Shown here piece by piece: positions 1 to 15,652 of a DNA stretch of 20,000 bases. Location: the IMG/VR virus record IMGVR_UViG_3300030330_003102; one strand, written 5' to 3'. The notes beneath the pieces were generated by a model. It did no database searches. It was not told the DNA's origin and saw only the letters and a program-made list of their open reading frames with translations. Source of the DNA: an uncultured virus (IMG/VR IMGVR_UViG_3300030330_003102). Lineage: Duplodnaviria > Heunggongvirae > Uroviricota > Caudoviricetes. Each line of letters begins with the position of its first letter. Position 1 is the first letter of the stretch. The position numbers were made by a program, and so were the translations under genes.

Positions 1-347
1 CACTTGCATGATGGTTCGACTGGGTTGGCTGCTATCCATGCGTGCCAGTTGTGATTAAGAGGAGTCTCAGTCTGCATGACCCACACGGAGAGGCAGTTGC
101 CCTCGACCTCGGTGCAGTTATCGTCAATCTCTAACTCGCCGTTCTGCTCTAGGAGGCACACAGCGTCCCAAAAGGCGCTACGAGGAATAACATCTTCATC
201 AAACTCATAGTGATGAATATAACCAGCACCCTGCTCAAATTCACCATCCTCAAACGCCTCCCTTACCAACATTCTCACCAATTGGATTTGATGAGGTAGG
301 AGTATAGTCATTCTTGGGGCTTGTCCGTTCGATTTTAGGTCGCTCAT
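1..347 (-). CDS. Hypothetical acidic protein, at least 115 aa, runs off the left edge (absent from the ORF track)
   Basis: Manual translation from ATG at 347 is open to position 1 (MSDLKSNGQAPRMTILLPHQIQLVRMLVREAFEDGEFEQGAGYIHHYEFDED...). TATA-like TTCATAAG at 369-376 on the minus strand has the same spacing as at the other cassette genes. Confidence 0.8.
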   Translation of the reverse strand, partial: MSDLKSNGQAPRMTILLPHQIQLVRMLVREAFEDGEFEQGAGYIHHYEFDEDVIPRSAFWDAVCLLEQNGELEIDDNCTEVEGNCLSVWVMQTETPLNHNWHAWIAANPVEPSCK

Positions 348-555
348 GGTCTATCCATAGAGCATCCCCTTATGAACCTGCCGATATTATGTTATGTAGT
401 TTTGACAAGCCGATACTATGTTATGTAGTTTCCGCTACTGAATCAACACGACCCCAAACTACATAACATTATGTACCTATATGATACTTACTACATGATG
501 AAAACTACATAACATTTTCCTAACAATTCTAAAACTACATAACATTCAAAACTAC

Positions 556-582
556 AAAAAAAGTGGGGGGCCGAAGCCCCCC
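556..582 (-). terminator. GC hairpin with a C(UUCG)G tetraloop followed by a U7 tract, downstream of ORF 600-848
   Basis: Minus strand reads GGGGGGC-TTCG-GCCCCCC-AC-TTTTTTT, 17 nt after the stop codon. Confidence 0.8.
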
Positions 583-599
583 AAAAACTACATAACCGA

Positions 600-848
600 T
601 TAGGTTTCGGCGTCCTCGATTTTGTCCCAGTCCGGCTCTTGGATGTCGGAAATTTTCTCCCAAAGTTTGTCCACATCAATTCCGCGCTCGCTGAGTAGTT
701 TTGCGATGAAATGAATTTGGTTCAGACTGAGCGATGTGCCGTCGTCGCCGCCGAGATTGTTGTCAACTTCGCGGATGCCGATGGCGTACAATCTGATTAG
801 ATTCTTGGTTGATAGTTCGGGCAGTTTGGCTATGTATCGTGTCCTCAT
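600..848 (-). CDS. Hypothetical protein, 82 aa
   Basis: ATG at 848 with CCCTTAAGTACCC (TATA at 870-877) upstream and a terminator hairpin downstream. Confidence 0.8.
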   Translation of the reverse strand: MRTRYIAKLPELSTKNLIRLYAIGIREVDNNLGGDDGTSLSLNQIHFIAKLLSERGIDVDKLWEKISDIQEPDWDKIEDAET

Positions 849-1016
849 ATTACTGGGATAGCGGTTGGGTACTTAAGGGTTTTGTTGCCTATGTTATGTA
901 GTTTTTCGCGGGACATTTAGTAGTATAATAACTACATAACATTATGTAGGAGCGTATTATTTTTTACTTGACAAAAAAATACATAACATTATGTAGATGT
1001 AATTTGAAAAAAGAAA

Positions 1017-1248
1017 GTTCCCGCAACGCCCCCGCTTCATCAGGGCGGGGTGCGCTTAGGAGGAGCGGTGATGAACCGCGAGAGCGTCAGCATCGCAATA
1101 CTCTCACCCGCACATACGGGCCTTGCCTCCCACTTGGTTAGAGTCAGCGTCAGACTCTTTCGCGGTGCTCCGCCCCAAGCGCGGGGTCTGCACCTTGTGC
1201 CTTCCGTAACCCCCCATGAGAGGCGTTGGTTGGCCCGCCGTTGCAGAC
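1017..1248 (-). ncRNA. Candidate structured ncRNA 1, about 230 nt, family not recognised
   Basis: GC-rich island with a promoter (GAAAGGTTCTTATA, 1271-1284) and a downstream T-tract (1007-1016). The 5' UCUGCAACG can pair with the 3' CGUUGCGGG. It has a multi-stem core homologous to 1380-1612, and G-U pairs favour the minus strand. Confidence 0.7.
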
Positions 1249-1379
1249 AAGGTGAACGAACAGCCCTGAGTATAAGAACCTTTCTATGACTACATAACAT
1301 TATGTATCATCGGCGTTATACGCTTGGATTAAATTACTACATAACATTATGTAGGTGTAATTTTAAGAAAAAGAAAAAA

Positions 1380-1612
1380 CCCCGCCACCTTCCCCTTTCC
1401 ACAGGGGCGAGGCTTCGGAAGGGCTGGCTTGGAAAGCCAGCGAGGTCGCGAACCTCACCCGCCTATACGGGCTTACTTCCTACCTGATGAGCCGTATTTC
1501 ATCTCTCTCAGGCGCGGGGCCGCTCAACCCCTGCTTTTCGCTACCCACCAAATACCACAGAACACTCGCGGAGGTCGTAGGATATTACATCGGTGGGGGG
1601 GTGTCTTGCGAC
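1380..1612 (-). ncRNA. Candidate structured ncRNA 2, about 230 nt, paralog of ncRNA 1
   Basis: Promoter GAAAGGTTCATAAG (1634-1647) with no ATG at the expected start and a T-tract at 1365-1379. It shares the core CCCGUAU-NN-GCGGGUGAG and covarying stems with ncRNA 1. Confidence 0.7.
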
Positions 1613-1703
1613 AAACCTCCGTGTCGTCGTTTGCTTATGAACCTTTCTATCACTACATAACATTATGTAATGTTGGGTCAGTAAGTATAATAACTACATA
1701 ATA

Positions 1704-1750
1704 TATCACCGGAGGACTTACGCGGGCAAGCCCGCCGCCCCCGGATGATA
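1704..1750 (-). terminator. GC-rich 3' hairpin downstream of ORF 1759-2064 (terminator or stability element)
   Basis: Inner GCGGG-CTTG-CCCGC on the minus strand, enclosed by outer arms TATCA/CCGG...CCGG/TGATA. No clear T-tract follows. Confidence 0.5.
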
Positions 1751-1758
1751 CATGATGA

Positions 1759-2064
1759 TTAGAAATCTACGCTTCTGATTATGAAGCGGTCGTCGTCATA
1801 TCCGGCTATGACCGTAGTCTGTGTTTCAATGTCCTCAATGGTTTCCCAATCGCCATAAGATTCTTGAAACTCCTCAAGGTTCTCAAATTCTGTGAAATCA
1901 CAGCATATAGCGATTACATCAAGTTCAATCTCAATGCCGCAATCATCTTCAAGGTCAGTCAAGTATTCGTATAGCGCGAAGCGACCTAAGCGGGAGAAGT
2001 TCGCTTCTCTGCCCATATCGTCAAACGCTTGTACGAAGCGGTATTCGCTTACAGTATCTCTCAT
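1759..2064 (-). CDS. Highly acidic phage protein, 101 aa (ELDVIAICCDF motif); possible DNA-mimic or anti-restriction protein
   Basis: Start reassigned from 2103 to ATG 2064 because TTCATAAG (2086-2093) has the same spacing as at ORF 347. By my count it has 28 D/E, 7 R and no K. The function is inferred from composition only. Confidence 0.8.
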   Translation of the reverse strand: MRDTVSEYRFVQAFDDMGREANFSRLGRFALYEYLTDLEDDCGIEIELDVIAICCDFTEFENLEEFQESYGDWETIEDIETQTTVIAGYDDDRFIIRSVDF

Positions 2065-2209
2065 AGTTGGCCCACTTACTCCACCCTTATGAACCTTACG
2101 CATAACTACATAACATTAACTACATAACTTATGTAGTTAGTATGCATAACTTAATCAAAAACTACAAAACATTAAAATAATCCAAAAATCCAAAAACTAC
2201 ATAAGATAA

Positions 2210-2398
2210 CTACATAAGTTCTGTGTCATCCCTCCCCTCGTTCACTACATTGTCAATAATCATATTCATAACGCGGTCATGCTCTGCGTAGAGGTCAGCG
2301 AAAGTTGCCAACCTCTCTCCCTCTTGGTTCTCGCCAACCGTCCTCAGTCCGGCCATTACGATTCTTTCAATCCATCTGTATTCATGGGTCTTGTCCAT
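2210..2398 (-). CDS. Hypothetical protein, 62 aa
   Basis: Promoter CCCTTAAGTACCC (TATA 2420-2427) is nearly identical to that of ORF 848. Its last codons CTT ATG TAG are supplied by a repeat copy. Confidence 0.7.
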   Translation of the reverse strand: MDKTHEYRWIERIVMAGLRTVGENQEGERLATFADLYAEHDRVMNMIIDNVVNEGRDDTELM

Positions 2399-2705
2399 GA
2401 TACTGGGAGGGGGTGGGGGTACTTAAGGGTGTCGTTTAACTACATAACATTTCGTTGACTAACTACATAACATTATGTAGTTTGTGTTGGTTAACTACAT
2501 AACATCAAAACTACATAACAATTTGTAGTTCCAAAAACTACATAACATTTTCGGTTTCAAAACTACATAACATGTTGTAGTTTCACTTGGTGCAAAAACT
2601 ACACCGAGTGTAGTAAATTACACCGGGTGCAAAAAGTGAAGCAGGTGTGCTTGTGGCACTAGGTGTTTGAAGCAAAACCGAAAACTACATAATAAATCCA
2701 AATTG

Positions 2706-2720
2706 CGAACCTTTAAGTAG
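2706..2720 (+). promoter_or_regulatory. BRE/TATA-like element CGAACCTTTAAGTAG with no ORF at the expected start
   Basis: Matches CGAAGCCTTTAAGTA at 2828-2842; a repeat copy lies just upstream at 2684. Confidence 0.55.
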
Positions 2721-2827
2721 TTGTTCTTCTTCTCGCTTTGGGCTTCGGCTTCGCGGCCCCTGCGAAATAACTACATAATCCGTAAAAGTAACTACATAAG
2801 ATAACTACAAAACAAATTGTAGTTCAA

Positions 2828-2846
2828 CGAAGCCTTTAAGTACCCC
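2828..2846 (+). promoter_or_regulatory. Archaeal BRE/TATA promoter for the leaderless gene at 2866
   Basis: TTTAAGTA at 2835-2842, 24-31 nt upstream of the ATG. It has the same TTAAGTACCC core as the minus-strand cassette promoters. Confidence 0.75.
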
Positions 2847-2865
2847 ACCGCCGTCAGAGAAATTA

Positions 2866-3519
2866 ATGAGCGACCTACTAGACCGCATCGAACAGAAGAA
2901 AGCAGACATGAGAGAAGCCCGTGCAGGTATGAAGCAGGGCATCAAATACTCCTCGCGCTCGCTAGGAGGACACACCACGCAGTACCGCAAACTGTGCCGC
3001 GAGGCGGGCATTCCAGTTGAGATAACCAAGATTGTCCAAGCAGAGGAGACACCGGCCCCGACCATCGGCAAGCCCTGCCGCTACAAGGCGTGCAAGGGAC
3101 GCAATCACAAGTTGCACGGCGAAAAATGCCCGGTAGCATCAGCGAGAGGCAAAACCGGCGGACTGAACGGCGATGGAGAAGCCAAGCAACGCTTGGGAAG
3201 CACGAACGGAAACTTTAGGGCTGTTAGGCCGTGTGGCTGTCCCATGAGAGCGCACAAGCCCGACTGTGAACACGCTAGACCGGCCAACCGCAAGGACTTC
3301 GGCACTACGGCGAAAAAGGTCAGACAGGTTCTCAATATCCAGTCAATCTCATGGCAGAGCAAGGCTCTCAGCGTGGGTGCAGTTGCACACATGATGAGAG
3401 GTGTCACAGGCGTCTGCTCAGGTTGCAAAGAATCAATCCCGGCTGTACAGGCCGTCAAGGTTCACCCTGACGACATCATGCAGAATCCAGCACGGGTCAT
3501 CTGCGGAGGGTGTGAGTGA
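2866..3519 (+). CDS. Basic Cys/His-rich protein, 217 aa, probably multi-zinc-binding and nucleic-acid-binding
   Basis: Clusters CRYKAC..H..H...C, CGC....H...C and CSGC...H...CGGC; K/R rich; first gene of the rightward unit with its own promoter. Confidence 0.8.
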   Translation: MSDLLDRIEQKKADMREARAGMKQGIKYSSRSLGGHTTQYRKLCREAGIPVEITKIVQAEETPAPTIGKPCRYKACKGRNHKLHGEKCPVASARGKTGGLNGDGEAKQRLGSTNGNFRAVRPCGCPMRAHKPDCEHARPANRKDFGTTAKKVRQVLNIQSISWQSKALSVGAVAHMMRGVTGVCSGCKESIPAVQAVKVHPDDIMQNPARVICGGCE

Positions 3520-3550
3520 CGCTTGCGAGGCACGAACACAACGATAATAA
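3518..3550 (+). promoter_or_regulatory. Class II promoter motif GACGCTTGCGAGGCAC plus TATA
   Basis: Motif starts 55 nt before ATG 3573; AT-rich box at 3543-3550. Confidence 0.85.
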
Positions 3551-3572
3551 ACTGAGGAGTAGTGGAAAAAAT

Positions 3573-3791
3573 ATGAGCAATTGGGAGAGAATAATGGCTG
3601 GCGCATACATTGACGGCGGCTGGATGATAATTAGCGAAAGCACGGTGGGCGTTGATGCCTACGGCTATGAAGCACCCGAAGCAAAGCATGACTGGGTCAT
3701 CTTTCAAGGCGGAGAACACATTGGTGATAAGCCCACACTCGCAGAAGCGAAGAAGTATGCTGACGCGCATTACCTTCTGTGGCCGTTCTGA
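3573..3791 (+). CDS. Hypothetical protein, 72 aa (C-terminal TLAEAKKYA)
   Basis: Start moved from GTG 3516 to ATG 3573 on promoter spacing. Confidence 0.8.
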   Translation: MSNWERIMAGAYIDGGWMIISESTVGVDAYGYEAPEAKHDWVIFQGGEHIGDKPTLAEAKKYADAHYLLWPF

Positions 3792-3792
3792 T

Positions 3793-3826
3793 GACGCTTG
3801 CGAGACACGAAGGGAACAATTAAAAG
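3793..3826 (+). promoter_or_regulatory. Class II promoter motif GACGCTTGCGAGACAC plus TATA
   Basis: 55 nt before ATG 3848; ATTAAAAG at 3819-3826. Confidence 0.85.
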
Positions 3827-3847
3827 GAACGACGGAGAGGAGAAAAT

Positions 3848-4027
3848 ATGGCAATAGCACTAATAGAAATGACGATAGACTACAACACACCGGCAGAGGA
3901 GTTTGACGCTTTAGGCGACAAGTACCCTACGGGAGAGTACAGAGAGGAAACCGGAACCTACTGGTTCAGGGTGACTATCACAGGAGACTCTACCAACGGT
4001 GTGAAACTGACATGGTTCAAGGAGTGA
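3848..4027 (+). CDS. Hypothetical protein, 59 aa (absent from the ORF track)
   Basis: MAIALIEMTIDYNTPAEEFDALGDKYPTGEYREETGTYWFRVTITGDSTNGVKLTWFKE; has its own class II promoter and fills the gap between genes. Confidence 0.8.
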   Translation: MAIALIEMTIDYNTPAEEFDALGDKYPTGEYREETGTYWFRVTITGDSTNGVKLTWFKE

Positions 4028-4039
4028 GAAGGTGAGCCG

Positions 4040-4411
4040 ATGAGTATTCCTGAGCGACTATCCCACCTGAATGACTGGTTTGCCGAGGGCATACTATTAC
4101 AGGAAAAATACCTTGAGGAAATAGATGAACTAGAGGTGTGGGACTTCACCCACAACCTACTAGGCAGGGTGGCTTACAATGCTCTGTACACCGTTGCTAG
4201 AGAGGAAGGTCTAACGACCCATGAGGCGGCAGAGTTCTGTACTAGCAAGTGGATAAGACATCATGAGGAGTACCTACAGGCTATCATCACACAGGCTATA
4301 CAAGCGAGAGGACAGGCACGGAAGGCCGGTGACGACGGAGAAGCAAACTTCTTTGCCTACCTAGACTCCTACCGCAACTCCTTCGACGAAGCGGAGAGGT
4401 GTTCTGTATGA
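4040..4411 (+). CDS. Hypothetical protein, 123 aa
   Basis: GGTGA Shine-Dalgarno just upstream; lies in an operon-like run. Confidence 0.8.
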   Translation: MSIPERLSHLNDWFAEGILLQEKYLEEIDELEVWDFTHNLLGRVAYNALYTVAREEGLTTHEAAEFCTSKWIRHHEEYLQAIITQAIQARGQARKAGDDGEANFFAYLDSYRNSFDEAERCSV

Positions 4412-4474
4412 CTGAGCGAATATCCAATGCTGAATACTGGTTATCACCAATCGCCTTCAAGAAGGAGAATCAAC

Positions 4475-4507
4475 GACGCTTGCGAGACAGGAACACAAAG
4501 TATAATA
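4475..4507 (+). promoter_or_regulatory. Class II promoter motif GACGCTTGCGAGACAG plus TATA
   Basis: 56 nt before ATG 4531; GTATAATA at 4500-4507. Confidence 0.85.
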
Positions 4508-4530
4508 GCGAGATAGACAGAGGAGATAAT

Positions 4531-4827
4531 ATGACAACAGAGACACAACCCGAAACACCAGCAGACCTGTACAGAGTTAGGTTGCAATACCACCACCTGA
4601 CTAAAGCACAGGTAGAGAAGTTGATGATGGTTCTACACGACAGCCCCTTTGGGATGCCTAAGACACACGACCAATACCCTCAGATGGCTAATATGGAGTG
4701 CCAAATATGCCCACCTGTGTACGAAACCGCAGAAGAAGTAGAATGGGACTTTGACCCTAGAGGAGACGAGCAAATCCAAATACAGATAGTGACACACGAT
4801 GGAATCAACCCAGTAGAGGAGGAGTAG
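4531..4827 (+). CDS. Hypothetical acidic protein, 98 aa (in-frame alternative start at 4408)
   Basis: Promoter spacing supports 4531; an ATGA overlap with the previous stop makes 4408 possible too. Confidence 0.75.
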   Translation: MTTETQPETPADLYRVRLQYHHLTKAQVEKLMMVLHDSPFGMPKTHDQYPQMANMECQICPPVYETAEEVEWDFDPRGDEQIQIQIVTHDGINPVEEE

Positions 4828-4829
4828 AT

Positions 4830-5054
4830 ATGACGGGGTATATCCACTACAAGAACAAGCACAACGGACGAATCGTTTCCCTAGTGGAGACTAAGATAAC
4901 CGACACAGGCAATCAGATACACAAACTGAAAGACCTCAATGACGGTGTTTCAAACTGGACTTCTAACTACGACCTCCATGAGCATTGGGAGTCCTATACT
5001 GACGCTTGCGACACACATTCCAAAACTTCAAATACAAGTGAGGAGGAGGAGTAA
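4830..5054 (+). CDS. Hypothetical protein, 74 aa
   Basis: GAGGAGGAG Shine-Dalgarno upstream; its 3' end contains the promoter of the next gene. Confidence 0.7.
   Translation: MTGYIHYKNKHNGRIVSLVETKITDTGNQIHKLKDLNDGVSNWTSNYDLHEHWESYTDACDTHSKTSNTSEEEE
5001..5034 (+). promoter_or_regulatory. Class II promoter motif GACGCTTGCGACACAC plus TATA
   Basis: 56 nt before ATG 5057; TTCAAATA at 5027-5034. Confidence 0.85.
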
Positions 5055-5056
5055 AT

Positions 5057-6042
5057 ATGACAGGAAACATAATGCCAGCATACGCCCTACTAGGGCAAGA
5101 AGCAAAAGGAACGACAGCCGAGGAAGTCCTCGCTAACGCGGGACTGGACTTTGAGGTAGCACGCGCTCCGTCGGGGTATATTGACCCTAAGACTAATGAG
5201 TTTGTGAACCACAGAGGTCACAGTATCACCTACCGTACAGACACCAATCAATGCTTGGGTCATGTCGGCGGTACTTATCAGGTAGTACAGAACATAGACG
5301 CACTAAAGGTCTTTGACCGGATAGTGGGTGAAGGTAATGTAGAGTATGACCGAATCGGAATGATAGACGGTGGCCGCAAGATGTTCGCCAGCATGAAGTT
5401 GAACGAAGGGTTCAGCATCGCTGGTTGGGACGATGTTGACCAGTACCTCTACATGATAACAAGTCACGACGGCTCTACTGGCGTGCGCTACATCCCTGCT
5501 AATGTCCGCATCGGATGCACTAACCAGTTTGCCTACCTAGAGTCCATGCTCAAGGAAGCGGGCATCAACCCACGCATCCTATCTAGCCGACATTCAAGGC
5601 TAGTTGACCAGCGCATTGACGAGGCTATCGCGGCCCTGAAAGTCACAGACCAACTCAACGAGCAGTTCTCACACAGAGCCGCCGAGTTGATGCAGGTCGA
5701 ACTGGATGTAGCAGGTAGAACCGAGTTCTACATTGACGCTATGGGCCTCAAGACCGACGAGAAGTTGGTGGATAAGGCTGACAACCCCTTCGGCCTCACT
5801 ACACGCGGCAACAACACACTAGACCGCCTGTTTGAGTTGGAGGAGGCAGACACCAACACGACTAACGGAATGGCTGGCTCGGCTTGGGCCTCCTTCAATG
5901 TCGTCACCGAGTACCTTGACCACGCATGGGTCTATGACCGCAAGGGCGAGAAGGTCAATGAGAAGCGCGTAGAGAGCGCACTACTCGGCACAGGCATGAG
6001 GACTAAGGACAGGGCATGGCGAGCCGCCGCACGCCTTGTCGC
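5057..6042 (+). CDS. DUF932 / TIGR03299-type phage/plasmid protein; the true stop probably lies in the N gap
   Basis: Family-like segments EVLANAGLDFEV, YRTDT..CLGHVG..YQVVQN, IDGGRKMF, YLYMITSHDGS, VRIGCTNQ, SAWASFNVVTEYLDH and C-terminal LLGTG..TKDRAW. Translation past the gap does not look like real protein. Confidence 0.85.
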
Positions 6043-6117
6043 NNNNNNNNNNAGGAGGTTAAAAGAGGTTCGACACGGAGGCCCGTCGTATATGCGGCTG
6101 ACGATTCATCGTGCTTC

Positions 6118-6312
6118 CTCCCTCCCCCACCTATATTCACAGTAAAAATAACATTCACATAAGGAGGGCAGGGAGTTAAACAGGCCGAAAAGATGTATGT
6201 TGAGAGTCGTACTATCCTTGTTCTTAGGGATGCTTTCTGTTTGTGTAAACTTACGACATATCATCAGAAATCTAATTGCCTCTCCCTCCCTCCACCTATA
6301 TTCACAGTAAAA
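6118..6312 (+). repeat. About 30-bp direct repeat CTCCCTCCC(T)CCACCTATATTCACAGTAAAA at 6118-6147 and 6282-6312
   Basis: Read directly; the two copies are identical apart from a 1-nt indel. Confidence 0.9.
6163..6293 (+). ncRNA. Candidate ~130-nt stem-closed small RNA; a related partial element lies at 6053-6128
   Basis: 5' GGAGGG-C-AGGGAG-TTAAAC-AGGC pairs with 3' GCCT-CTCCCT-CCCTCC. Internal stems GTCGTA/TACGAC and ATCCTT/AGGGAT; G-U pairs favour the + strand. Confidence 0.45.
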
Positions 6313-6326
6313 GTAAGGTGAAAAAA

Positions 6327-6815
6327 ATGAGTACCGGAGACATGAAAAGAGACAAGTGGTGGAGGAGGAAGATAGCAAACAGGACTATCTCATTTGAGGA
6401 CAGCGCAGGGCTACTACCTATGGCCGAAGGCGGTTGGGCAGAGCGACGCTGTGTGCTTGACGACCCAAGCATAACCTGCGTAGATAGGAGGACTTTGGTT
6501 GCTCCTAAGTGCAAGTGTAAGAGTACACGCGGAAGAAAAATGAAACTATTACTTTCACCGGAAACTTATTTTCGCCAGTTCATCGCAACAGGCTCATGGG
6601 TACAAATCCGTAGGGTACAGGGATGGCTCTGTACCAACTGTGGTCGTATCGAGGAGCATGGTTGGGGCAGAGTGGGCGTAGTAGCGGCGCGTGGAAGGGT
6701 CACGGATATGCTCTACGAGAATGCGAGTTTGGTTCCCGACGAGTTGGCTCACCTGATACCGGAGGACGCTGACGAGTGGTTCAATCTCAACCCTATGGAG
6801 ACACAGAATGAGTAA
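6327..6815 (+). CDS. Hypothetical zinc-ribbon protein, 162 aa
   Basis: ATG 6327 follows an AAGGTGA Shine-Dalgarno; CKC...CTNCG motifs. Confidence 0.75.
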   Translation: MSTGDMKRDKWWRRKIANRTISFEDSAGLLPMAEGGWAERRCVLDDPSITCVDRRTLVAPKCKCKSTRGRKMKLLLSPETYFRQFIATGSWVQIRRVQGWLCTNCGRIEEHGWGRVGVVAARGRVTDMLYENASLVPDELAHLIPEDADEWFNLNPMETQNE

Positions 6816-6927
6816 TCGTTGTTCAAATCCGTCGCACGGACGCTTGGTCGGAGAGGGCCGATGTAGAATCTGCGACGCTTCCGAAGCACGAAAGAAAACT
6901 ATAAAAATAAAGGACGAGGAGGAGTAA
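6808..6927 (+). CDS. 39-aa putative zinc-binding microprotein (absent from the ORF track)
   Basis: MSNRCSNPSHGRLVGEGRCRICDASEARKKTIKIKDEEE; overlaps the previous stop, has GGAG upstream and a Cx4H...CxxC pattern. Confidence 0.5.
   Translation: MSNRCSNPSHGRLVGEGRCRICDASEARKKTIKIKDEEE
6874..6906 (+). promoter_or_regulatory. Class II promoter motif GACGCTTCCGAAGCAC plus TATA
   Basis: 56 nt before ATG 6930; CTATAAAA at 6899-6906. Confidence 0.8.
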
Positions 6928-6929
6928 AT

Positions 6930-7610
6930 ATGACGAACGAATGGAGCCACTATGTAGGCGACCCCTGCTATGTGATAGACGATGACCGATGGAGCGACTT
7001 CTGTGATGCTCTATGGGCTGAACAACACCGAAGAAAGACGGAGTTTGAGGAGAGAACAGGAAAGGAAATCAGCGCCTACTCCTTTTACCCCGTCATCTTA
7101 GACTGGGAATACAAGGACGAGGACGGCGACACTAACATAGCCGAAGTCGAGGTACATAACAGTCCCTTTGGCGACGGCTGTTGGGGCTTCGGTGACACCG
7201 TGAGAGGTATGACAGGATGGGTGGCCGGAACGGAGTTGGGCGTTGATGCCGGACTCCTTGCCGTCGTGCCAAGAGAAGCCGTAGAGCGAGATAACATGGG
7301 TGATGCTGAACACTTAGGCATCCTGTTTAACTGCTATCCCGACCTTGAAACCGGAGAAAACTTGGCCGGTCATGTTCTGTTAGATGGGTTTCATCCTGAC
7401 GGCTACATGGAATGCGACGACTGTGGCGAGGCCACAGACGAAGGCAATATGTGTTGGTGTGACAATTGTGGAGCATCCTCTTGTTCCTCCTGTTGGGGTT
7501 CCTGTGGTTGCTCTGAGTGTGAGGACTGTGGTAGTTACTACGAAGAAAGATACAGTCACTACGACTATATATGCAACGACTGTGGAGAACTAAGAGAGGA
7601 GGAGGAGTAA
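6930..7610 (+). CDS. Acidic phage protein (YVGDPCYV...GDG...GVDAG motifs) with a Cys-rich C-terminal tail, 226 aa
   Basis: The N-terminal motifs resemble a widespread uncharacterised phage family (DUF4241-like; recalled, not searched). The tail has CDDC, CWCDNC, CSSCWGSCGCSECEDC and CNDC. Confidence 0.8.
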   Translation: MTNEWSHYVGDPCYVIDDDRWSDFCDALWAEQHRRKTEFEERTGKEISAYSFYPVILDWEYKDEDGDTNIAEVEVHNSPFGDGCWGFGDTVRGMTGWVAGTELGVDAGLLAVVPREAVERDNMGDAEHLGILFNCYPDLETGENLAGHVLLDGFHPDGYMECDDCGEATDEGNMCWCDNCGASSCSSCWGSCGCSECEDCGSYYEERYSHYDYICNDCGELREEEE

Positions 7611-7612
7611 GC

Positions 7613-7843
7613 ATGGGTTGGGAGGTACTAATTAACGACTCATGGAGGTTTAGGTTTTCCTTTTTCTGTAATACTATTGACCGAGCCTTTGGTGATGTTT
7701 TCTACCTTGACTGTGGGAGTATTGAGGAATTTTATGAGGTATGGGCAGAATTGAGCCTACCCGACCCAAGACGCATGACCGCTGACGAAAGGTGGGAAGC
7801 GATAGAAAAAATGCGTGCGTACATAGAGGGGGAAGAAGAATGA
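7613..7843 (+). CDS. Hypothetical protein, 76 aa
   Basis: ATG 7613 follows a GAGGAGGAG Shine-Dalgarno and the previous stop. Confidence 0.75.
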   Translation: MGWEVLINDSWRFRFSFFCNTIDRAFGDVFYLDCGSIEEFYEVWAELSLPDPRRMTADERWEAIEKMRAYIEGEEE

Positions 7844-8133
7844 GTGATAAGGAGTACCTTAACGACCACTACCACGACCGACTCCATGAGGAGGCTATCG
7901 CTACCTGCGAGCATGAGGACTACACAATCACTAGCATAGACAATGTAAGGACTCACGACCTGAGAGGACACAAGATGAAAGAGCCTGTGGTCGAGGTCGA
8001 AGTGACCTGTGACTTTTGCGGTAAAACTAACTATGGCGAACTACCCCTTGAACAAGTGCTTGACCTTCTCAACAACTTTCTATATGACTATCGGCTGAAC
8101 TGCACAATCCAAGACGACGGAGCGTGGGGCTAA
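7840..8133 (+). CDS. Hypothetical zinc-ribbon protein, 97 aa
   Basis: ATGA overlap at 7840; CEH...CDFCG. Confidence 0.75.
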   Translation: MSDKEYLNDHYHDRLHEEAIATCEHEDYTITSIDNVRTHDLRGHKMKEPVVEVEVTCDFCGKTNYGELPLEQVLDLLNNFLYDYRLNCTIQDDGAWG

Positions 8134-8234
8134 TGGCGACCAAGAGGCAAAGAGCAGCGCAACGGTGGCGCTACAATCAGAAGTATAAATCGAGAGTCAA
8201 ATCCGGTGAGAAGAATAGCCGTAAAAGTAAGTGA
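8133..8234 (+). CDS. 33-aa highly basic peptide (absent from the ORF track)
   Basis: TAATG overlap; MATKRQRAAQRWRYNQKYKSRVKSGEKNSRKSK. Confidence 0.5.
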   Translation: MATKRQRAAQRWRYNQKYKSRVKSGEKNSRKSK

Positions 8235-8239
8235 GTAAT

Positions 8240-8273
8240 AACGCTTGCGACACAGGAACGAAAACCCTAAAAG
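8240..8273 (+). promoter_or_regulatory. Class II promoter motif AACGCTTGCGACACAG plus TATA
   Basis: 55 nt before ATG 8295. Confidence 0.8.
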
Positions 8274-8294
8274 CAAACACCTCTAGGACTAATT

Positions 8295-8516
8295 ATGAGA
8301 AGGAGCATGAAACAGACGCTACACTTTGCTGATTGTAAGAGATGTGGTATCGCTGAATGGATAACCGTAAATGGAAGTATAATCGGAGACATACGCTTTG
8401 AAGGCCAAAAGTATGAGCCGGAAGAAATATGCACAGAGTGTGCGTCAGAGTTGATAGACAAAATAGTAAATAGATGGATGACAAATAGAGGATATACAGA
8501 GGAGGACAGAGAATGA
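8295..8516 (+). CDS. Small zinc-ribbon protein, 73 aa
   Basis: CKRC...CTEC; has a class II promoter. Confidence 0.75.
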   Translation: MRRSMKQTLHFADCKRCGIAEWITVNGSIIGDIRFEGQKYEPEEICTECASELIDKIVNRWMTNRGYTEEDRE

Positions 8517-8755
8517 GTAAATTATCAGGAGCAATCCAACGACTACAAGACCTACAAGACGAACTACAACAGTTAGAAGAAACACGCGACGCTATCTATG
8601 TGGCGTTAGACGCGATAGAAAACGCCGACTGTGCTTTCAGTAGCACCGGACTCGGTCAAGACCTGTCGCATCATGCGTCAATGGAGATAGAAGAATCTCT
8701 CTGCATGGTTGATGAACGAATCGAGGAAATAGAAGGGGCGGCTGAACAACTATGA
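8513..8755 (+). CDS. Acidic coiled-coil protein, 80 aa
   Basis: ATGA overlap; heptad-like LQDLQDELQQL. Confidence 0.75.
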   Translation: MSKLSGAIQRLQDLQDELQQLEETRDAIYVALDAIENADCAFSSTGLGQDLSHHASMEIEESLCMVDERIEEIEGAAEQL

Positions 8756-8979
8756 GAGCAAAGACCGTTCCTCATGTTGAATACGAAATCTTCAATCTGA
8801 TACTTGACGAGATAGATATTTCTATGCTAAAAGAACAGATGTGTCCGACGGGAGATGATGTCGCACTTACTCGCTTTGAGAAGGGCGCGGCATCGGCGGC
8901 ACAACTGATACAGAATCTAATCGAGAGGCGTAAGCACAGGCTACCTCACGACCACTTGGACTACGAGGTGAAGGAATGA
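8752..8979 (+). CDS. Hypothetical protein, 75 aa
   Basis: ATGA overlaps at both ends. Confidence 0.75.
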   Translation: MRAKTVPHVEYEIFNLILDEIDISMLKEQMCPTGDDVALTRFEKGAASAAQLIQNLIERRKHRLPHDHLDYEVKE

Positions 8980-9245
8980 CTAAGCACGAAGGAATGATGA
9001 AGCACATCTCACGCGGCAGACGCAACAATCGGGGGAGACTAGTCTTCGACAGAATCTGTGGTACTCCTGTCTCTGAAAAGGGCGAGTATGTATCTGATGA
9101 GGAGTGGAGCAAATTACCTGAGTGTCCTGAATGTTTTGGTAAAAATAACTTCACGCTTGCACCACAAGAACCCAAAGTAGATAAGTGTGAAGCACAACCG
9201 AAAATCATAACACAGGGTCTGTACCTGCGACAATACTTGGAGTGA
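8976..9245 (+). CDS. Hypothetical protein, 89 aa, possibly zinc-binding
   Basis: GAGGTGA Shine-Dalgarno and ATGA overlap; H...CG...CPEC. Confidence 0.7.
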   Translation: MTKHEGMMKHISRGRRNNRGRLVFDRICGTPVSEKGEYVSDEEWSKLPECPECFGKNNFTLAPQEPKVDKCEAQPKIITQGLYLRQYLE

Positions 9246-9249
9246 AAAA

Positions 9250-9444
9250 ATGTACAAAAAAGAATGGATAGAATACTACGAGTTCCTTGAGATGCTAAGG
9301 CAATCGGGAGCAACGAATATGTTTGGTGCGGCTCCGTATCTTGAAAAACACATGGGTCTTGATAGGAAAGAGGCACGCGCCGTGTTAAACTCATGGATGG
9401 AGAACTACGACGCACTATTAGAGGACGGGGTGATAGTACGGTGA
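9250..9444 (+). CDS. Small conserved phage protein with LRQSGATNMFGA motif (DUF5049-like), 64 aa
   Basis: The LRxSGxTNMF motif is recalled from phage hypothetical proteins; GGAGTGA Shine-Dalgarno upstream. Confidence 0.75.
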   Translation: MYKKEWIEYYEFLEMLRQSGATNMFGAAPYLEKHMGLDRKEARAVLNSWMENYDALLEDGVIVR

Positions 9445-9764
9445 CTAGAAGAAAGTATCGCGCAATCAAGGGCTTCACAGTCAAGGGTTGGTGGCAGTTG
9501 GCTAGTGCGGCCCGCTACCTACAAGATGTCGGGGAAGCGACTTCACGCGAAATCGTAGAACACGCAAGAGCGAAAAATGGTTCACGGTTGGGTTTGACGG
9601 TAATGGAGATGTCGTCCCGTATGGCTAAACACAACTCGTTTAAGAGCAGAAAGGTGGACAGAAACAAAGCAACTCCTGTCAGGTGGTCACTAGCCAACGA
9701 CAACATTTTCTTAGAGAATCCTAACGATAAAAATACTCGCGTAAAGAAGGAGTGGAAAGAATGA
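9441..9764 (+). CDS. Basic winged-helix-like protein, 107 aa
   Basis: GTGA overlap with a GGGGTGA Shine-Dalgarno; YLQDVGEATSREIVE helix pattern and a terminal RWSL strand. Confidence 0.65.
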   Translation: MTRRKYRAIKGFTVKGWWQLASAARYLQDVGEATSREIVEHARAKNGSRLGLTVMEMSSRMAKHNSFKSRKVDRNKATPVRWSLANDNIFLENPNDKNTRVKKEWKE

Positions 9765-9964
9765 GTGATACAAAGTGGATATTGTTCGCCAAGAGGTCAT
9801 CGAGAGATAACTGCATAGGTAAAGGTAGAATCCTTGACTGTCGGCTAAATAAAAGAGGAGTGGAGTTTGTGGAAGGGTTTTTGTTGGAAATAGACATGAC
9901 GCTAGACGGTGTTAGGTTTGCCGGTACTTTAGCACCAGTATGCAAACAGGATGAGGAGGAGTAG
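9761..9964 (+). CDS. Hypothetical protein, 67 aa
   Basis: ATGA overlap at 9761 with a GGAG Shine-Dalgarno. Confidence 0.65.
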   Translation: MSDTKWILFAKRSSRDNCIGKGRILDCRLNKRGVEFVEGFLLEIDMTLDGVRFAGTLAPVCKQDEEE

Positions 9965-9965
9965 T

Positions 9966-10220
9966 ATGAGCAGACCAATAACAGTCTTAGAACTGTCAGA
10001 GGCGTTAGATAAAATGCTACAAGAAGGAAAGGGTGACTACCCTATCTGCGTTGCTTTCCGTTGGAAGGGCGACACCGTTATGTCCGACATCACATCATGG
10101 TGTCTTAACGGTAATAGTATTCAACTAAACGAGGAGGACTTTATGCGCCATGCGACACTCTTGAATGAGTTAGGGTATGATACAAGCGTCATAAGCGGAA
10201 TACCTACAAAGGATAGGTAA
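9966..10220 (+). CDS. Hypothetical protein, 84 aa
   Basis: ATG 9966 after GAGGAGGAG; N-terminus ITVLELSEAL...GDYPI. Confidence 0.7.
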   Translation: MSRPITVLELSEALDKMLQEGKGDYPICVAFRWKGDTVMSDITSWCLNGNSIQLNEEDFMRHATLLNELGYDTSVISGIPTKDR

Positions 10221-10225
10221 GACAA

Positions 10226-10327
10226 ATGAAAACTTGTAGCGTGTGTAGGGGCCGAGGATTCACAGTAGTTTCTGCCGCTTGCGGAGAGAAAGAAATCGAA
10301 CAATGTATGTGGTGTAAGTATGAGTAA
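10226..10327 (+). CDS. 33-aa zinc-finger microprotein (absent from the ORF track)
   Basis: MKTCSVCRGRGFTVVSAACGEKEIEQCMWCKYE; CxxCxGxG...CxxC; fills the gap between genes. Confidence 0.6.
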   Translation: MKTCSVCRGRGFTVVSAACGEKEIEQCMWCKYE

Positions 10328-10556
10328 GTTTGAGGAAAAAGTAATAGAAAAAATCATGGAGCGAGCCAAAGTAGGCGAAGGCAAATACGGCGTCACGATG
10401 GAAAGGAAAGACCTCAGTATCGTTGAGTGGTTGGTTCATCTCCAAGAGGAACTGATGGATGCCGCCGTCTATGTAGAGCGTCTGATAGCAGACTGTTCAT
10501 GTCACATACACGGCACAGAACCGGAACAGGGATGTCCTTACTGCCGACGCTTGTGA
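10320..10556 (+). CDS. Small MazG-like / all-alpha NTP pyrophosphohydrolase-like protein, 78 aa
   Basis: R..VG..KYGVT..R.DL...WL.HLQEELMDAAVY contains the EExxD acidic motif; C-terminal CSCHIH...CPYC. Confidence 0.6.
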   Translation: MSKFEEKVIEKIMERAKVGEGKYGVTMERKDLSIVEWLVHLQEELMDAAVYVERLIADCSCHIHGTEPEQGCPYCRRL

Positions 10557-10579
10557 GGCACAACCGAATACTTTAAGTG
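10546..10579 (+). promoter_or_regulatory. Class II promoter motif GACGCTTGTGAGGCAC plus TATA
   Basis: 55 nt before ATG 10601; TTTAAGTG at 10572-10579. Confidence 0.85.
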
Positions 10580-10600
10580 TGGTATAACCCTCGGAGATAT

Positions 10601-10855
10601 ATGAGACACAAGAGAATAAGAAGGACTCTACTACAAACCCTGCGGGAAAATCCCGAAGGGTTGACAGCAATTCAAATCATGGACAAACTCGACAAGAAGA
10701 AAAGGGCTAAGGTTAGTAATGCAAAACATATCGGCGTTCTACTTCGTGGTCTGAAAGGAGTAAAGAAAATGAGAGAGGTGGATATTCATAGCGATGTGTA
10801 TAGGTACAAAGTCAATGTTTATTATTACGATGAAAATGAAGGAGCAGAAATATGA
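10601..10855 (+). CDS. Basic winged-helix-like protein, 84 aa
   Basis: Start at ATG 10601 by promoter spacing; LLQTLRENPEGLTAIQIMDKL. Confidence 0.75.
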   Translation: MRHKRIRRTLLQTLRENPEGLTAIQIMDKLDKKKRAKVSNAKHIGVLLRGLKGVKKMREVDIHSDVYRYKVNVYYYDENEGAEI

Positions 10856-11112
10856 AGAAGTACAGAGACTACTTAGATGAAAAAGAGAGAGAAGCGGCAG
10901 AGCCTAAGAAGGTGTTTCCCTACACAGAAAACGATGAAGTGAATCATCTAAGGCAACTGGTCGAGGATATGACTAGATGGATGAGTATAGGTTCCTACGG
11001 TCAAAAGACACCGCAGAACATGGTGAGAGAGTTCAAGGAGACGATGAGTAAGGCTAACACCATCGTGAGACAGAATAAGTGGCAGAGGGAAAACAATGGA
11101 AACATTCGTTGA
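10852..11112 (+). CDS. Hypothetical protein, 86 aa
   Basis: ATGA overlap and GGAG Shine-Dalgarno. Confidence 0.75.
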   Translation: MKKYRDYLDEKEREAAEPKKVFPYTENDEVNHLRQLVEDMTRWMSIGSYGQKTPQNMVREFKETMSKANTIVRQNKWQRENNGNIR

Positions 11113-11968
11113 GATAACACCTAAAGAAACCGAGGTGACATACGCCTATGAATATCAAGACATAAAATACAAAACCAAACTACAGCCTGAGATAAGACTT
11201 TTTGACGGTAAAAATAACTACACAATCACGGATAGATACATTCTCTATCGCTTCCTTAGATGCCTAGACCCCGAACTTAGGTATCTTGATATGATGCTAA
11301 CCATCTATGATATGGGAATTGATGAGCGACCAAGTTTAGCCGACATCATACAGGGATATTTGTATAATACTAATACGGAAAAAGTAAGTATGTGGGTAGA
11401 TGGTGAAAAAATTGTTTTAGTAGAAGATGACAACAACACTTACAGTAAATATTTCCAGACCACTATGGACTACATAGGTGCTAACTTCCTACCGGACTAT
11501 GTTCGTTCCATGCGCTACATGAAGGCAGGTAACAAGGACAGAAAGTTTCCCGTAATGGTGTTCACCAAAGTAAAGGCTCTCGGTAGAATCAAGATAGAAA
11601 TAATATCCTACAATCAAAAGACTTTCATAGCCGGAAGATACAGACCACACACACAACAGACAGCAGATACAGGCAAGACCTTTTGGGTTCAACCAAGACC
11701 CGTAGGGTTCTGCCCCCGTTGGGCGCACCTGATACCACATACTGCCCTCAAGGTAATGCTAGACGACTTCCGTGTGCTTGAGAAGATGGGTGAATTAACT
11801 AAGGGTAGCACATTGGTTGGTGGCGGTGGAGCATCAGACCGACTAGATAGATGGAACGAAAGAAATAATTTAGAAGCAGAAAATATGCATAGGTTTGACC
11901 GTAAAACTATTGACGAACTCAAGTATTACGCAGATATTTGGGATTCTTTCAGTTTTGAGGAGGAGTAG
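11096..11968 (+). CDS. Hypothetical protein, 290 aa
   Basis: Long ORF; no motif recognised. Confidence 0.85.
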   Translation: METFVEITPKETEVTYAYEYQDIKYKTKLQPEIRLFDGKNNYTITDRYILYRFLRCLDPELRYLDMMLTIYDMGIDERPSLADIIQGYLYNTNTEKVSMWVDGEKIVLVEDDNNTYSKYFQTTMDYIGANFLPDYVRSMRYMKAGNKDRKFPVMVFTKVKALGRIKIEIISYNQKTFIAGRYRPHTQQTADTGKTFWVQPRPVGFCPRWAHLIPHTALKVMLDDFRVLEKMGELTKGSTLVGGGGASDRLDRWNERNNLEAENMHRFDRKTIDELKYYADIWDSFSFEEE

Positions 11969-12116
11969 AAAAATAATAAATCGTGGTACTGCTCCCCACT
12001 TTTCTAATTCTTCAATTACTTCAAAGGTAGTTAAGTTAAGGTAAGGTATCTAAAATACCTATGAAGAAATAGAATAAATAAACAATAGGCTCGCAGTACA
12101 GCGTTTTATTATTTTT
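11969..12116. repeat. 148-bp AT-rich nested inverted repeat
   Basis: Outer arms 11969-11992 and 12093-12116 match at 21/24. Inner arms TTCTAATTCTTCA (12002-12014) and TGAAGAAATAGAA (12062-12074) match at 12/13. A small AGGTAT/ATACCT hairpin lies inside. Confidence 0.8.
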
Positions 12117-12149
12117 ACGCTTGTGTCACAGAATGAAAACAATTAAATG
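12116..12149 (+). promoter_or_regulatory. Class II promoter motif TACGCTTGTGTCACAG plus TATA
   Basis: 56 nt before ATG 12172; ATTAAATG at 12142-12149. Confidence 0.75.
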
Positions 12150-12171
12150 TGTAATAGAAGGAGGGAGAGAT

Positions 12172-12609
12172 ATGCCTAGAGCGCAGAATAAACGAATGCA
12201 ACACAGGCTCTATCTACGCTTAGTAGAGAAGGGGCCACAGAGTACACAAGACTTACTATTGTGGTACAACCACGAAAGACCACAGATGTCAAAGCACACT
12301 AAGGGCGCACAGCACGGTGCATCAGTACATGAGTTGGGTGGTTGCCTTTCATCGTGTATCTTGTTTGAAAAAATGGGTACAGTACCGAGAGAAAAGGTCG
12401 AGGCATTCATCGCACATAGCCAAGAGCCAAACAATCAAGGTAAGTTCTTTGAAACATTCTCTAGGCGTTCAGCATACGAGATAGCGGTATGGAAAGCGAG
12501 GCCGATGGATGAGGCAGTAGAAAGGGCCATAGCATCAAAAAGACCAATCAAAAAATACCCACACTTTCTACAAAAGGAAATCAACAAGAAGATAGGTGAT
12601 ACACAATGA
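12172..12609 (+). CDS. Basic winged-helix-like protein, 145 aa
   Basis: Start at ATG 12172; LVEKGPQSTQDLL...SVHELGGCLS...VWKA. Confidence 0.7.
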   Translation: MPRAQNKRMQHRLYLRLVEKGPQSTQDLLLWYNHERPQMSKHTKGAQHGASVHELGGCLSSCILFEKMGTVPREKVEAFIAHSQEPNNQGKFFETFSRRSAYEIAVWKARPMDEAVERAIASKRPIKKYPHFLQKEINKKIGDTQ

Positions 12610-13379
12610 AGGTCATAGACAGTAGAGGAGATACTGACTTCGTGTGGGAACGCGAAGTAGAAGTAGAGCCAACAACCCTTATCGCATACTATCAGAACGA
12701 ACAGGGCTTTGCCTCCTTCATCGCGGGCGCGAGCCTGATAGGAGATGGTGAGCCCGTGTGTAGCATCCTCTCAAAGTTGCACCAAGTAGAGCCAATGAAT
12801 ACAATCCCTGCCCCCACCTTCCCTGAATGGAGACTCTATGAACTCCGCAACGAAGATGGTCGTCGTTATTTTGTCTTAAGAATAAATCACGCATACATTC
12901 CCGCACCCAATCACACTAAGGCGTGGCTGTATAACTATCCTGTGTTCCGTGACATCGTGACCGTACTTTCTGAGAAGGGAGTGGATGAATTAGTTTATCT
13001 TACGGCAAATATAATGCAAGAATATATTTATCAAGAACAGGCACAGATACCCTCAGATGAATTACTTGTGTACGACTATGATGAAAAAGATGACTCGTTA
13101 TTTTTGACTGACGGTACAGACCTTGCTTACCAAGACCTTGACATACCTCCGCCTTCATGGATAGTGGCTGAGTGTTTTGAAAAGTTCAACACTAATCCCG
13201 TGCGTGGCAACTACATAGTCTTATGCGCAAATACCGCTACTACATTCATCAATGAGAGGGAAGCAGAAAGGTTGTTGCAGTTTCTTGAGGACACACACGC
13301 TCTGATGTACGACGAAAAGTATAAGGGCGAGTTGTTAGAGGTTCTGTATGACGCAGAGGCATCGCAGGTGGTAGAATGA
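12606..13379 (+). CDS. Divergent PAC2 (proteasome assembly chaperone)-like protein, 257 aa
   Basis: Ordered segments match the PAC2 pattern: PTTLIAY...GFASFIAGASLI, WRLYE, IVTVLSEKGVDELVYL, INEREAERLLQFLE. Judged by eye, so remote homology only. Confidence 0.55.
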   Translation: MKVIDSRGDTDFVWEREVEVEPTTLIAYYQNEQGFASFIAGASLIGDGEPVCSILSKLHQVEPMNTIPAPTFPEWRLYELRNEDGRRYFVLRINHAYIPAPNHTKAWLYNYPVFRDIVTVLSEKGVDELVYLTANIMQEYIYQEQAQIPSDELLVYDYDEKDDSLFLTDGTDLAYQDLDIPPPSWIVAECFEKFNTNPVRGNYIVLCANTATTFINEREAERLLQFLEDTHALMYDEKYKGELLEVLYDAEASQVVE

Positions 13380-14713: not shown

Positions 14714-15038
14714 TCCAATATATGACCGAAGAAGTCCACAGTACCGACCTGACTATGTTTTTCCACACAATGAAACTGCGTGGTGGCAAAAGAATAATAA
14801 AAATCCTGTCGTGCGTGCGTTGGTTCACTATGCTCTTACGCTAAAAGAACCTTTCACAATACACAAACTTCAAAATGAAGCAAAGTATATGAACGGTAAT
14901 CTTATTTGCGCTAGTGGTAGAATGTCTCCGGGTATAAATAAAATCAGGGCTATGATACGGCTGTGTGGGTACTTCAAAAAGAGTGAAGAAAAGGTGGTCG
15001 TGGGTACTTCAAAAAGGTGGCTGTGGGTGAGAAAATGA
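14703..15038 (+). CDS. Basic winged-helix-like protein, 111 aa
   Basis: ATG 14703 after a GGGGTGA Shine-Dalgarno; EPFTIHKL...KIRAMIR...LWVR. Confidence 0.7.
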   Translation: MPSNPIYDRRSPQYRPDYVFPHNETAWWQKNNKNPVVRALVHYALTLKEPFTIHKLQNEAKYMNGNLICASGRMSPGINKIRAMIRLCGYFKKSEEKVVVGTSKRWLWVRK

Positions 15039-15652
15039 GAAGTAAGAGAGAGATACAACAGAGGCTCGCATCTGAAAATGATGCTTTCGCCATAGAAGTC
15101 CTACGGTGGGTTCTTACTGGTGGTTGTGAGGTCTGCGAACACAAAGAAAGAAAGGAAATAGAAATGGATGTCTATAATGGCTCGGTTTCCCCTGCGTATC
15201 TTGAGGCTAAATATAACTGGCCCGACGGCCATGTTATGAACCACATGGATGCTCACCTTGACTATGACCCGCGTGAAGCACAACACATAGAGGAGGCACG
15301 AAGCCAAAGCATCAACACGCTAGATGCCGCCGAGGACATCGTAAATCGTATCACTACCTATCTTGATGAGTTGGAAGCCCTCAAGGAAGCAGAAGGTGGT
15401 ATCACATCTGACTTCGTAACTGATGCGGCGCGTCTTATCGCACAGGCTAATACTTCCTTAAAATTAGTAGGGACTCTCAAGAAAGAGATAGGAGTTGATA
15501 GCCAACTACTTCTCGCCCATACTCAACTGAATGAGGTTAGTCGTATCTTAGTGGAGGTTCTATCAGACCAACCAAAACTATTAGATGATGTGGAAAGAAA
15601 ATTAAATATGCTAAGTACACCAATTGATGTCCCATACGAGGTAGTAGAATGA
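15035..15652 (+). CDS. CxxCxH-HTH-HxxxH protein with a helical C-terminus, possibly terminase-small-subunit-like, 205 aa
   Basis: CEVCEHKERKEIE...LEAKYNW...VMNHMDAH; ATGA overlap and GGGTGA Shine-Dalgarno. The function is tentative. Confidence 0.55.
   Translation: MRSKREIQQRLASENDAFAIEVLRWVLTGGCEVCEHKERKEIEMDVYNGSVSPAYLEAKYNWPDGHVMNHMDAHLDYDPREAQHIEEARSQSINTLDAAEDIVNRITTYLDELEALKEAEGGITSDFVTDAARLIAQANTSLKLVGTLKKEIGVDSQLLLAHTQLNEVSRILVEVLSDQPKLLDDVERKLNMLSTPIDVPYEVVE

Follow-up and report, generated by a model that had tools for sequence, protein, structure and literature searches.

The 20,000-nt stretch of DNA analyzed in this study (the window) belongs to the uncultured Caudoviricetes record IMGVR_UViG_3300030330_003102, a 73.6-kb genome rated 100% complete and coded G000, in which it spans C1:53,631-73,630. 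The left end of the window holds an array of small genes and two folded RNAs (RNA1 and RNA2), arranged as separate promoter-driven units that each have a TATA-like box and a hairpin, and interspersed with clusters of the short repeat CTACATAA (Table 1). Thirty exact copies of CTACATAA were found, all within positions 392-2799, where shuffles gave a chance expectation of 0.73 for the window (largest shuffle count, four); positions 2867-20000 contain none. An earlier interpretation made from the letters alone (the sequence-only reading) had proposed a repeat-delimited array at 340-2866, which these counts bear out. It had also described the rest of the window as free of such a repeat; this holds for CTACATAA, but the rightward operons carry a different repeat, GACGCTTGCGA, with seven copies at up to one mismatch where 0.26 were expected. 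Across the genome, 63 of the 65 CTACATAA copies lie inside one 5.1-kb array (C1:51,311-56,422), which therefore reaches 2.3 kb left of the window. This leftward part contains additional units and a leftward 301-aa gene, followed by the terminase block.

The full 18-nt palindrome, CTACATAA-CA-TTATGTAG, was exact at window positions 932, 1337, and 2463, and its inner 16 nt occurred seven times. The earlier description of the repeat as palindromic applies to these sites, whereas the majority of the copies are lone half-sites on the + strand; the whole array includes 58 forward and 12 reverse copies. Preferred copy spacings were 13-14 and 25-26 nt, in A-rich DNA. The promoter AGGTTCATAAG matched exactly at three positions (379, 1644, and 2096) and CTTAAGTACCC at two (877 and 2427), so that the near-identical promoters of two types ascribed to six units were recovered exactly in five, while RNA1 has a variant (AGGTTCTTATA). 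The open reading frames (ORFs) starting at 347, 848, 2064, and 2398 were confirmed on the minus strand, and the stop codon of the 62-aa ORF does come from a repeat copy. No function was identified for the cargo genes.

Table 1. Features of the repeat-bearing array and its right anchor (window positions;., no strand assigned).
Feature	Position	Strand	Remark
125-aa orphan ORF	1..347, start 347, extends 30 nt beyond left window edge	-	82% identical copy in L021
BRE/TATA-like promoter AGGTTCATAAG	369..379	-	exact motif
Repeat cluster, 6 exact cores	392..595	.	G/C hairpin 565-582, likely terminator of 82-aa gene
82-aa orphan ORF	600..848	-	homologue on + strand before 217-aa gene in L009, L010, L026
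TATA-like promoter CTTAAGTACCC	867..877	-	exact motif
Repeat cluster with full palindrome 932-949	894..996	.	motif count
RNA1, structured non-coding RNA	1005..1265, conserved core 1005-1197	-	covariation; no Rfam match
RNA1 promoter, variant TTCTTATA	1271..1282	-	11 nt past repeat site
Repeat cluster with full palindrome 1337-1354	1290..1354	.	motif count
RNA2, RNA1 paralogue	1364..1625, core 1364-1530	-	sequence/structure comparison
Promoter AGGTTCATAAG	1634..1644	-	11 nt past repeat site
Repeat cluster	1653..1701	.	right breakpoint of RNA-for-other-unit exchange versus L021
101-aa ORF, phrog_9974 (function unknown)	1759..2064	-	found in repeat-less arrays too
Promoter AGGTTCATAAG	2086..2096	-	12 nt past repeat site
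Repeat cluster	2106..2217	.	copy 2210-2217 gives TAG of ORF 2210-2398
62-aa orphan ORF	2210..2398	-	different C-terminus in L021
Promoter CTTAAGTACCC	2417..2427	-	12 nt past repeat site
Repeat cluster	2440..2582	.	22-nt palindrome 2461-2482, place of two extra L021 units (665 nt)
Separate conserved element, GGTGCAAAAA / ACACCGAGTG motifs	2589..2670	.	kept in relatives with and without the repeat
Repeat copies and rightward TTTAAGTA promoters (2712, 2835)	2685..2842	+	palindrome variant 2803-2822 stops 12 nt before 2835 box
217-aa Cys-rich gene	2866..3519	+	conserved right anchor in all relatives, repeat-bearing or not

In archaea, activators acting through recruitment of TBP or TFB occupy sites just upstream of the TFB-recognition element (BRE). 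The sites on the promoter side of the repeat clusters were compiled in 56 rows, from which 26 of other lineages were removed to leave 30 in the common orientation, from the five loci with this motif. In this set, 22 sites end 11-12 nt before the TATA-like box, four end at 22-25 nt, and four gave no pattern match. The 11-12-nt spacing holds for all seven promoter-side sites of G000 (the close strain L021 is not independent of it), and it is mirrored at the rightward promoter in five of five loci. The placement of the last site 11-12 nt before the TATA box points to the operator of a regulator, and the fixed spacing fits a role of the repeat as a protein-binding site. Ptr2 and TFB-RF1 have been described as activators of this TBP- or TFB-recruiting type, and F55 of SSV1 as a repressor acting at repeated sites (PMC5569661).

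The repeat occurs in three variants among the related loci, AACTACATAAC in G000 and L008, TACTACAAATT in L009 and L010, and AACTACAAAAC in L041-L045. Every variant has a matching 18-nt palindrome where the sequence suffices, and an ACTACA core is kept across the lineages. The distribution of the repeat follows that of the 301-aa gene, a leftward gene at the left end of the array that encodes a Cys-rich orphan protein with six database relatives. All eight scorable loci with this gene have one of the three ACTACA-core variants; L037 and L040, where the gene is present and the sequence ends before the array, and L039 and L046, which are too short, were not scored. The gene is missing in L022, L028, L047, and L036, where 0, 0, 1, and 0 core matches were found, respectively, over the whole stretch between both anchors in the former two and over only 2.2-2.5 kb in the latter two. 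In a terminase tree, L036 is the sister of G000 (98/97), L009/L010 fall together with L028/L047 (100/99), and the starred branches of this tree require at least four changes of the gene/repeat state. The 301-aa gene and the repeat thus appear to be gained and lost together, and the protein is predicted to bind the repeat, being a candidate by co-occurrence only since no family or structure match was found. Two other genes were rejected as partners: nearly the same 217-aa protein is encoded in L009 (with repeat) and L022 (without it), which argues against a specificity factor, and the 82-aa gene, considered as the binder, was not found in the repeat-bearing L008.

Relatives of the array were gathered with four queries: the repeat itself, the right anchor (217 aa), the 301-aa gene, and the gene of 82 aa that follows the terminase. 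The flanking genes are kept among them while unit content and order vary, with several breakpoints at repeats. In L021, which is about 95-99% identical to G000, two extra promoter-gene units of 665 nt lie between two identical 22-nt palindromes, where G000 has one palindrome. The RNA1-RNA2 block is also exchanged in this strain for another non-coding unit; on the right this exchange ends at the repeat at 1652, and on the left its junction lies directly against a palindrome of L021. In an alignment scored by eye, 8 of the 13 differences of at least 10 nt between the two strains touch a repeat copy and repeat neighbourhoods make up 33% of the array, a comparison that is not a formal test because shared repeats attract alignment ends. 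Copy-number micro-indels of 14-27 nt are common in the same alignment. Another lineage shows further rearrangements: two units are in reversed order in L009 versus L026, and the RNA occupies different positions in L010 and L026. Junctions among these three loci include full palindromes, lone half-sites, and one shared promoter, with block ends either 0-20 nt from repeats or at the shared promoter. Repeat and anchors are the same in L008, which nevertheless has only two of nine tested cargo ORFs in common, and the repeat-less arrays L022, L028, and L047 contain genes homologous to the 101-aa or the 50-aa cargo gene.

Since crossovers were also located at promoters and inside ORFs, and the same cargo is found in repeat-less arrays, the repeat is used for exchange, yet it is neither the sole site nor required. 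The sequence-only reading, in which the repeats promote gain, loss, and shuffling of cassettes, therefore stands with this restriction, and its remark that no recombinase is visible in the window extends to the whole G000 record, from which tyrosine (PF00589) and serine (PF00239) recombinases are absent and in which no integrase or resolvase family is encoded. Taken with the half-site, promoter, and in-gene crossovers and the repeat-less cargo, this argues for short-homology recombination, so that the shuffling looks like that at the promoter early stem-loops (PeSLs) of T4-type phages rather than an integron. A weak joint in X9 (5956 to 8493, with a short side of 21 letters) was left out of the count. 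The repeat-less arrays in L036 (3200-5000), L028 (4700-7400), and L047 (2300-4400) start with rightward-facing units and have other shared joints, and L022 and L028 contain TATA-like spacer repeats that face opposite to the genes.

The source of the window is an ocean virus that likely has an archaeal host, and the genome looks like one of magrovirus group C. G000 encodes PolB, a clamp loader, a GroEL-type chaperonin, a portal protein, a terminase with an adjoining metallophosphoesterase, and ERCC4 and PD-(D/E)XK nucleases, and no ATP-dependent ligase was found among its proteins. Group C magroviruses are described as encoding PolB, a clamp loader, a GroEL-type chaperonin, and a metallophosphoesterase/exonuclease within the structural block, without an ATP-dependent ligase (Philosof 2017, PMC5434244), and the same combination of PolB, clamp loader, chaperonin, structural-block exonuclease, and missing ligase was found in G000. 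The RadA-like ATPase, MCM, primase, and sliding clamp gave no hidden Markov model (HMM) match in G000; according to the same source, these magrovirus proteins need profile-profile searches (PMC5434244). No tRNA was found, and host-genome searches returned no match.

Array contigs were deeper than their flanks in all five DNA runs that cover the whole stretch (1.79 and 1.17; 1.82 and 1.15; 1.81; 1.38; 1.18). The depths were fitted by one doubled stretch, C1:49,950-55,725 (~5.8 kb; range 49,525-50,350 to 54,925-56,525), with a size of 5.6-6.1 kb in four of the runs. If a second strain were the cause, branches would be expected at either edge; contigs of runs X4 and X6 span the left edge unbroken and the sole branching contig there adds almost no depth, which speaks against such a strain. 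L036 is 96.6% identical to G000 up to C1:49,992 and then continues with an unrelated, partly rightward unit set. Judged from contig depth, the array likely lies in a long terminal repeat of about 6 kb. The fitted left edge of the doubled region carries a similar motif in each of the 10 loci inspected; in L001 this motif appears as an A/T-tract followed by GCGT..GGTGGT..GGC at 5925-6010, directly past the 82-aa gene, and it is a candidate cut site. The conserved element at 2589-2670 is a candidate origin or terminus (right-end) signal. No description of magrovirus terminal repeats, termini, or this repeat was found by literature searches or in passages of PMC11706807, PMC5434244, PMC5628999, and PMC8651126, and the word 'repeat' is absent from the main text of PMC5434244.

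RNA1 and RNA2, which had been proposed as two RNA units, proved to be true paralogues with covarying stems, and their fold consists of two stacked multi-stem junctions (six homologues from five viruses). Both sides change in 10 of 40 pairs of the alignment, more than in any of 500 shuffles or any slid control, in an alignment whose rows are few and related. At the gathering score, neither the window nor seven related loci matched any Rfam family, and the matches by E-value were those expected by chance. Readings of the RNAs as a tRNA mimic, RNase P, or the signal recognition particle RNA were weighed on the basis of motifs and dropped, and a literature search on RNAs of Poseidoniales viruses turned up nothing relevant. 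RNA1 is present without mismatches in contigs of two RNA runs of one study, at depths of 44 and 38, with other array pieces at 3-15; because contigs give neither level nor strand, this is a weak hint that RNA1 is expressed, and array parts without RNA-contig cover were not taken as silent. Further promoter-led units without a convincing ORF, outside the RNA1 family, occur in L021 (3300-3610) and on the minus strand of L008 (8110-8420), and these could possibly be other RNAs, with folding z-scores of only -0.9 and -1.5.

The explanation preferred here, with a probability of about 0.6, is that the array consists of promoter-gene-terminator units in a ~6-kb magrovirus terminal repeat, where the motif is the site of a viral regulator and secondarily provides short homologies for the gain, loss, and reordering of units. 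The units would be expressed first after infection, from promoters served by host TBP/TFB, and an early or host-takeover role of the region is what we infer, as the sequence-only reading did. The motif is likely bound by a virus-encoded regulator; binding of the 301-aa protein could activate all units jointly or later shut them off, and the extra same-direction copies may spread this protein or block read-through. Supplying short homologies would likely be a side effect of the motif, with exchange proceeding through general or slippage-type recombination, aided by the two copies of the region per virion.

Several observations weigh against this explanation. Its depth argument relies on contig depth, which gives each contig a single flat value and does not measure copy number, and the five runs come from two studies that may be the source of this record; in run X4 the doubled stretch was 3.9 kb, a misfit to the other four. 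Site-to-TATA spacing was looser in other lineages (9-26 nt), and 5 of the 13 differences between G000 and L021 lie away from repeats, as patches inside ORFs or at 3' ends. Neither an excised circle nor a repeat-to-repeat deletion joint was found in the contigs of eight runs, where contigs drop rare forms. Rad51/RadA family members were not detected in G000. Block exchange alone would link the 301-aa gene to the repeat, and the absence of both in L036 and L047 covers the short stretches given above. The 301-aa protein itself had no match in Pfam, PHROG, or PDB sequences, a viral fold search returned nothing under E 0.3, and its two AlphaFold models are of low confidence (pLDDT 33 and 43).

Other explanations were weighed against the same evidence. 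The dense same-direction copies could be a structural signal of the genome end, serving DNA entry, packaging, duplication of the terminal repeat, or replication start, with their closeness to promoters just reflecting intergenic space. The location of 63 of 65 copies within the depth-doubled stretch or just right of it, the strong polarity and preferred spacings in A-rich DNA, and the copies inside an ORF (L001 7881-8207) agree with such a signal. However, relatives with a near-identical terminase are entirely without the repeat, the different element at 2589-2670 and the left-edge motif are the ones kept in all relatives, and such a signal would not lead one to expect the narrow site-to-TATA spacing found on both strands, which makes this explanation unlikely. 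We regard as quite unlikely a more far-reaching version of the regulator reading, in which the 301-aa protein and its 60-70 sites would form an exchangeable control module, with a new protein family coating the first-entering genome end while both regulating and actively recombining the cassettes, and in which the region would be the first terminal repeat of the long type to be described in a marine virus of archaea. The bounding of the 665-nt indel by just 22 nt of identity, namely the palindrome, and the co-occurrence of the 301-aa gene with the repeat would also be expected if this protein were a dedicated site-specific recombinase acting on an integron-like array. The site can be read as two arms flanking an 8-nt spacer, and RNase H-like clusters, at 0.91-0.92, came out of a feature search made with one homologue, a lead only, with a low shared count. 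That proposal is nonetheless improbable: crossovers are spread over full palindromes, lone half-sites, promoters, and ORF interiors, the same cargo occurs in repeat-less arrays, the 60-70 copies per array far exceed the number of units, and inspection by eye of 12 homologues of the protein revealed no conserved DDE or tyrosine-recombinase residue set. Unlike those of an integron, the units have their own promoters, no site has one fixed crossover point, and neither a tyrosine nor a serine recombinase is encoded, nor are integrase/resolvase families found in the genome.

A host protein rather than a viral one might bind the motif, which would then act as a decoy or sponge or recruit a host activator. 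First-expressed genes must rely on host factors, and the half-site is one base off the TATA-like spacer repeats found at the same places in the repeat-less L022 and L028; three variants in close viral lineages and the joint loss with a viral gene argue otherwise, and the full palindrome had a single match among 185,579 species genomes, located in a bacterial bin, so that this possibility was given a low probability. A functionless repeat that spreads by slippage, with depth steps caused by another strain, would explain the frequent 14-27-nt micro-indels. It appears very improbable in view of the fixed TATA spacing, the confinement to one region, the ACTACA core conserved across lineages, the low depth of the only branching contig at the left edge, and the two runs without a break there.

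Recombination between the repeated regulatory joints of T4-type PeSLs yields indels and replacements without a dedicated recombinase (Arbiol 2010, PMC2839356; Comeau 2014, PMC4122927). They resemble the present array in their small orphan genes, each with a strong host-type promoter and a terminator, and in indels and replacements among relatives that end at the joints. In contrast, the promoters here are archaeal TATA promoters and not sigma-70 promoters, the joints carry clusters of a separate 11-nt motif and a palindrome, the units form one compact array, likely in a terminal repeat and with non-coding RNA cargo, and the mini-circles of PeSLs were not seen in contigs of eight runs, which drop rare forms. 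The array, which belongs to an archaeal-type virus, works like a PeSL region without being a member of this class.

The host-takeover module of SPO1 comprises several kb of small early genes, present twice per virion. Early-gene long terminal repeats with raised coverage are known from T5 and the Thermus phage phiFa, that of phiFa being 6.6 kb (PMC7515739). The depth over the G000 array fits such a doubled coverage, as contig means only, but the virus is archaeal, its terminal repeat comes from contig depth alone, and the whole region is replaced between close relatives. The stoperators of mycobacteriophage L5 (PMC9283540) and the F55 sites of SSV1 (PMC5569661) are many short, oriented intergenic or promoter sites for one viral regulator, and the sites of G000 are similarly polar and fixed in promoter position. 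They differ in that the candidate protein has no helix-turn-helix or ribbon-helix-helix match, that they lie upstream of the BRE and not over the start site, and that no sign of lysogeny was found. Halovirus HF2 has intergenic repeats of 29-58 nt that are promoters, genome-wide and conserved in position (PMC8707807, PMC7230728). G000 shares with this tailed archaeal virus intergenic DNA that is repeated and bears promoters, but its units are shuffled and its motif stands apart from the TATA box.

This analysis adds a likely terminal repeat, a dense polar motif that comes in three variants, and a candidate partner gene. The array is the likely location of the first-expressed and fastest-changing genes of an abundant uncultured ocean virus, and it offers a testable protein-DNA pair, with one orphan protein family and sites in three natural variants. 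From it, long terminal repeats are predicted for magroviruses, and the swappable cargo includes an uncatalogued RNA family.

Additional repeat loci were noted. A 108-aa ORF at L001 7881-8207 holds five internal copies of the repeat and is nearly identical in L021. Short tandem repeats (GAATCTAGGTT-like and TTCACT) lie at L001 7180-7300, in the stretch that separates the 301-aa gene from the first repeat cluster. At L001 9488, where assemblies break, the near-identical L011 differs by a single repeat unit of 14 nt. Loci L002, L003, L006, L007, and L050 have a single motif match and were set aside as unrelated, and a dif/Xer site, suggested by a likeness only, was rejected, given the 2-nt spacer and no Xer gene. 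The copies of GACGCTTGCGA are on the + strand between rightward early genes (3518, 3793, 4475, 5001, 6874, 8240, and 10546), and L028 contains about 10. A DUF932 gene spans window positions 5057-6145, with an assembly gap at the gene end. The two record ends (C1:1-2,765 versus window 17,230-19,990) are homologous and only 71% identical, one of which may be from another strain, and L011 sits on a 70,925-nt contig.

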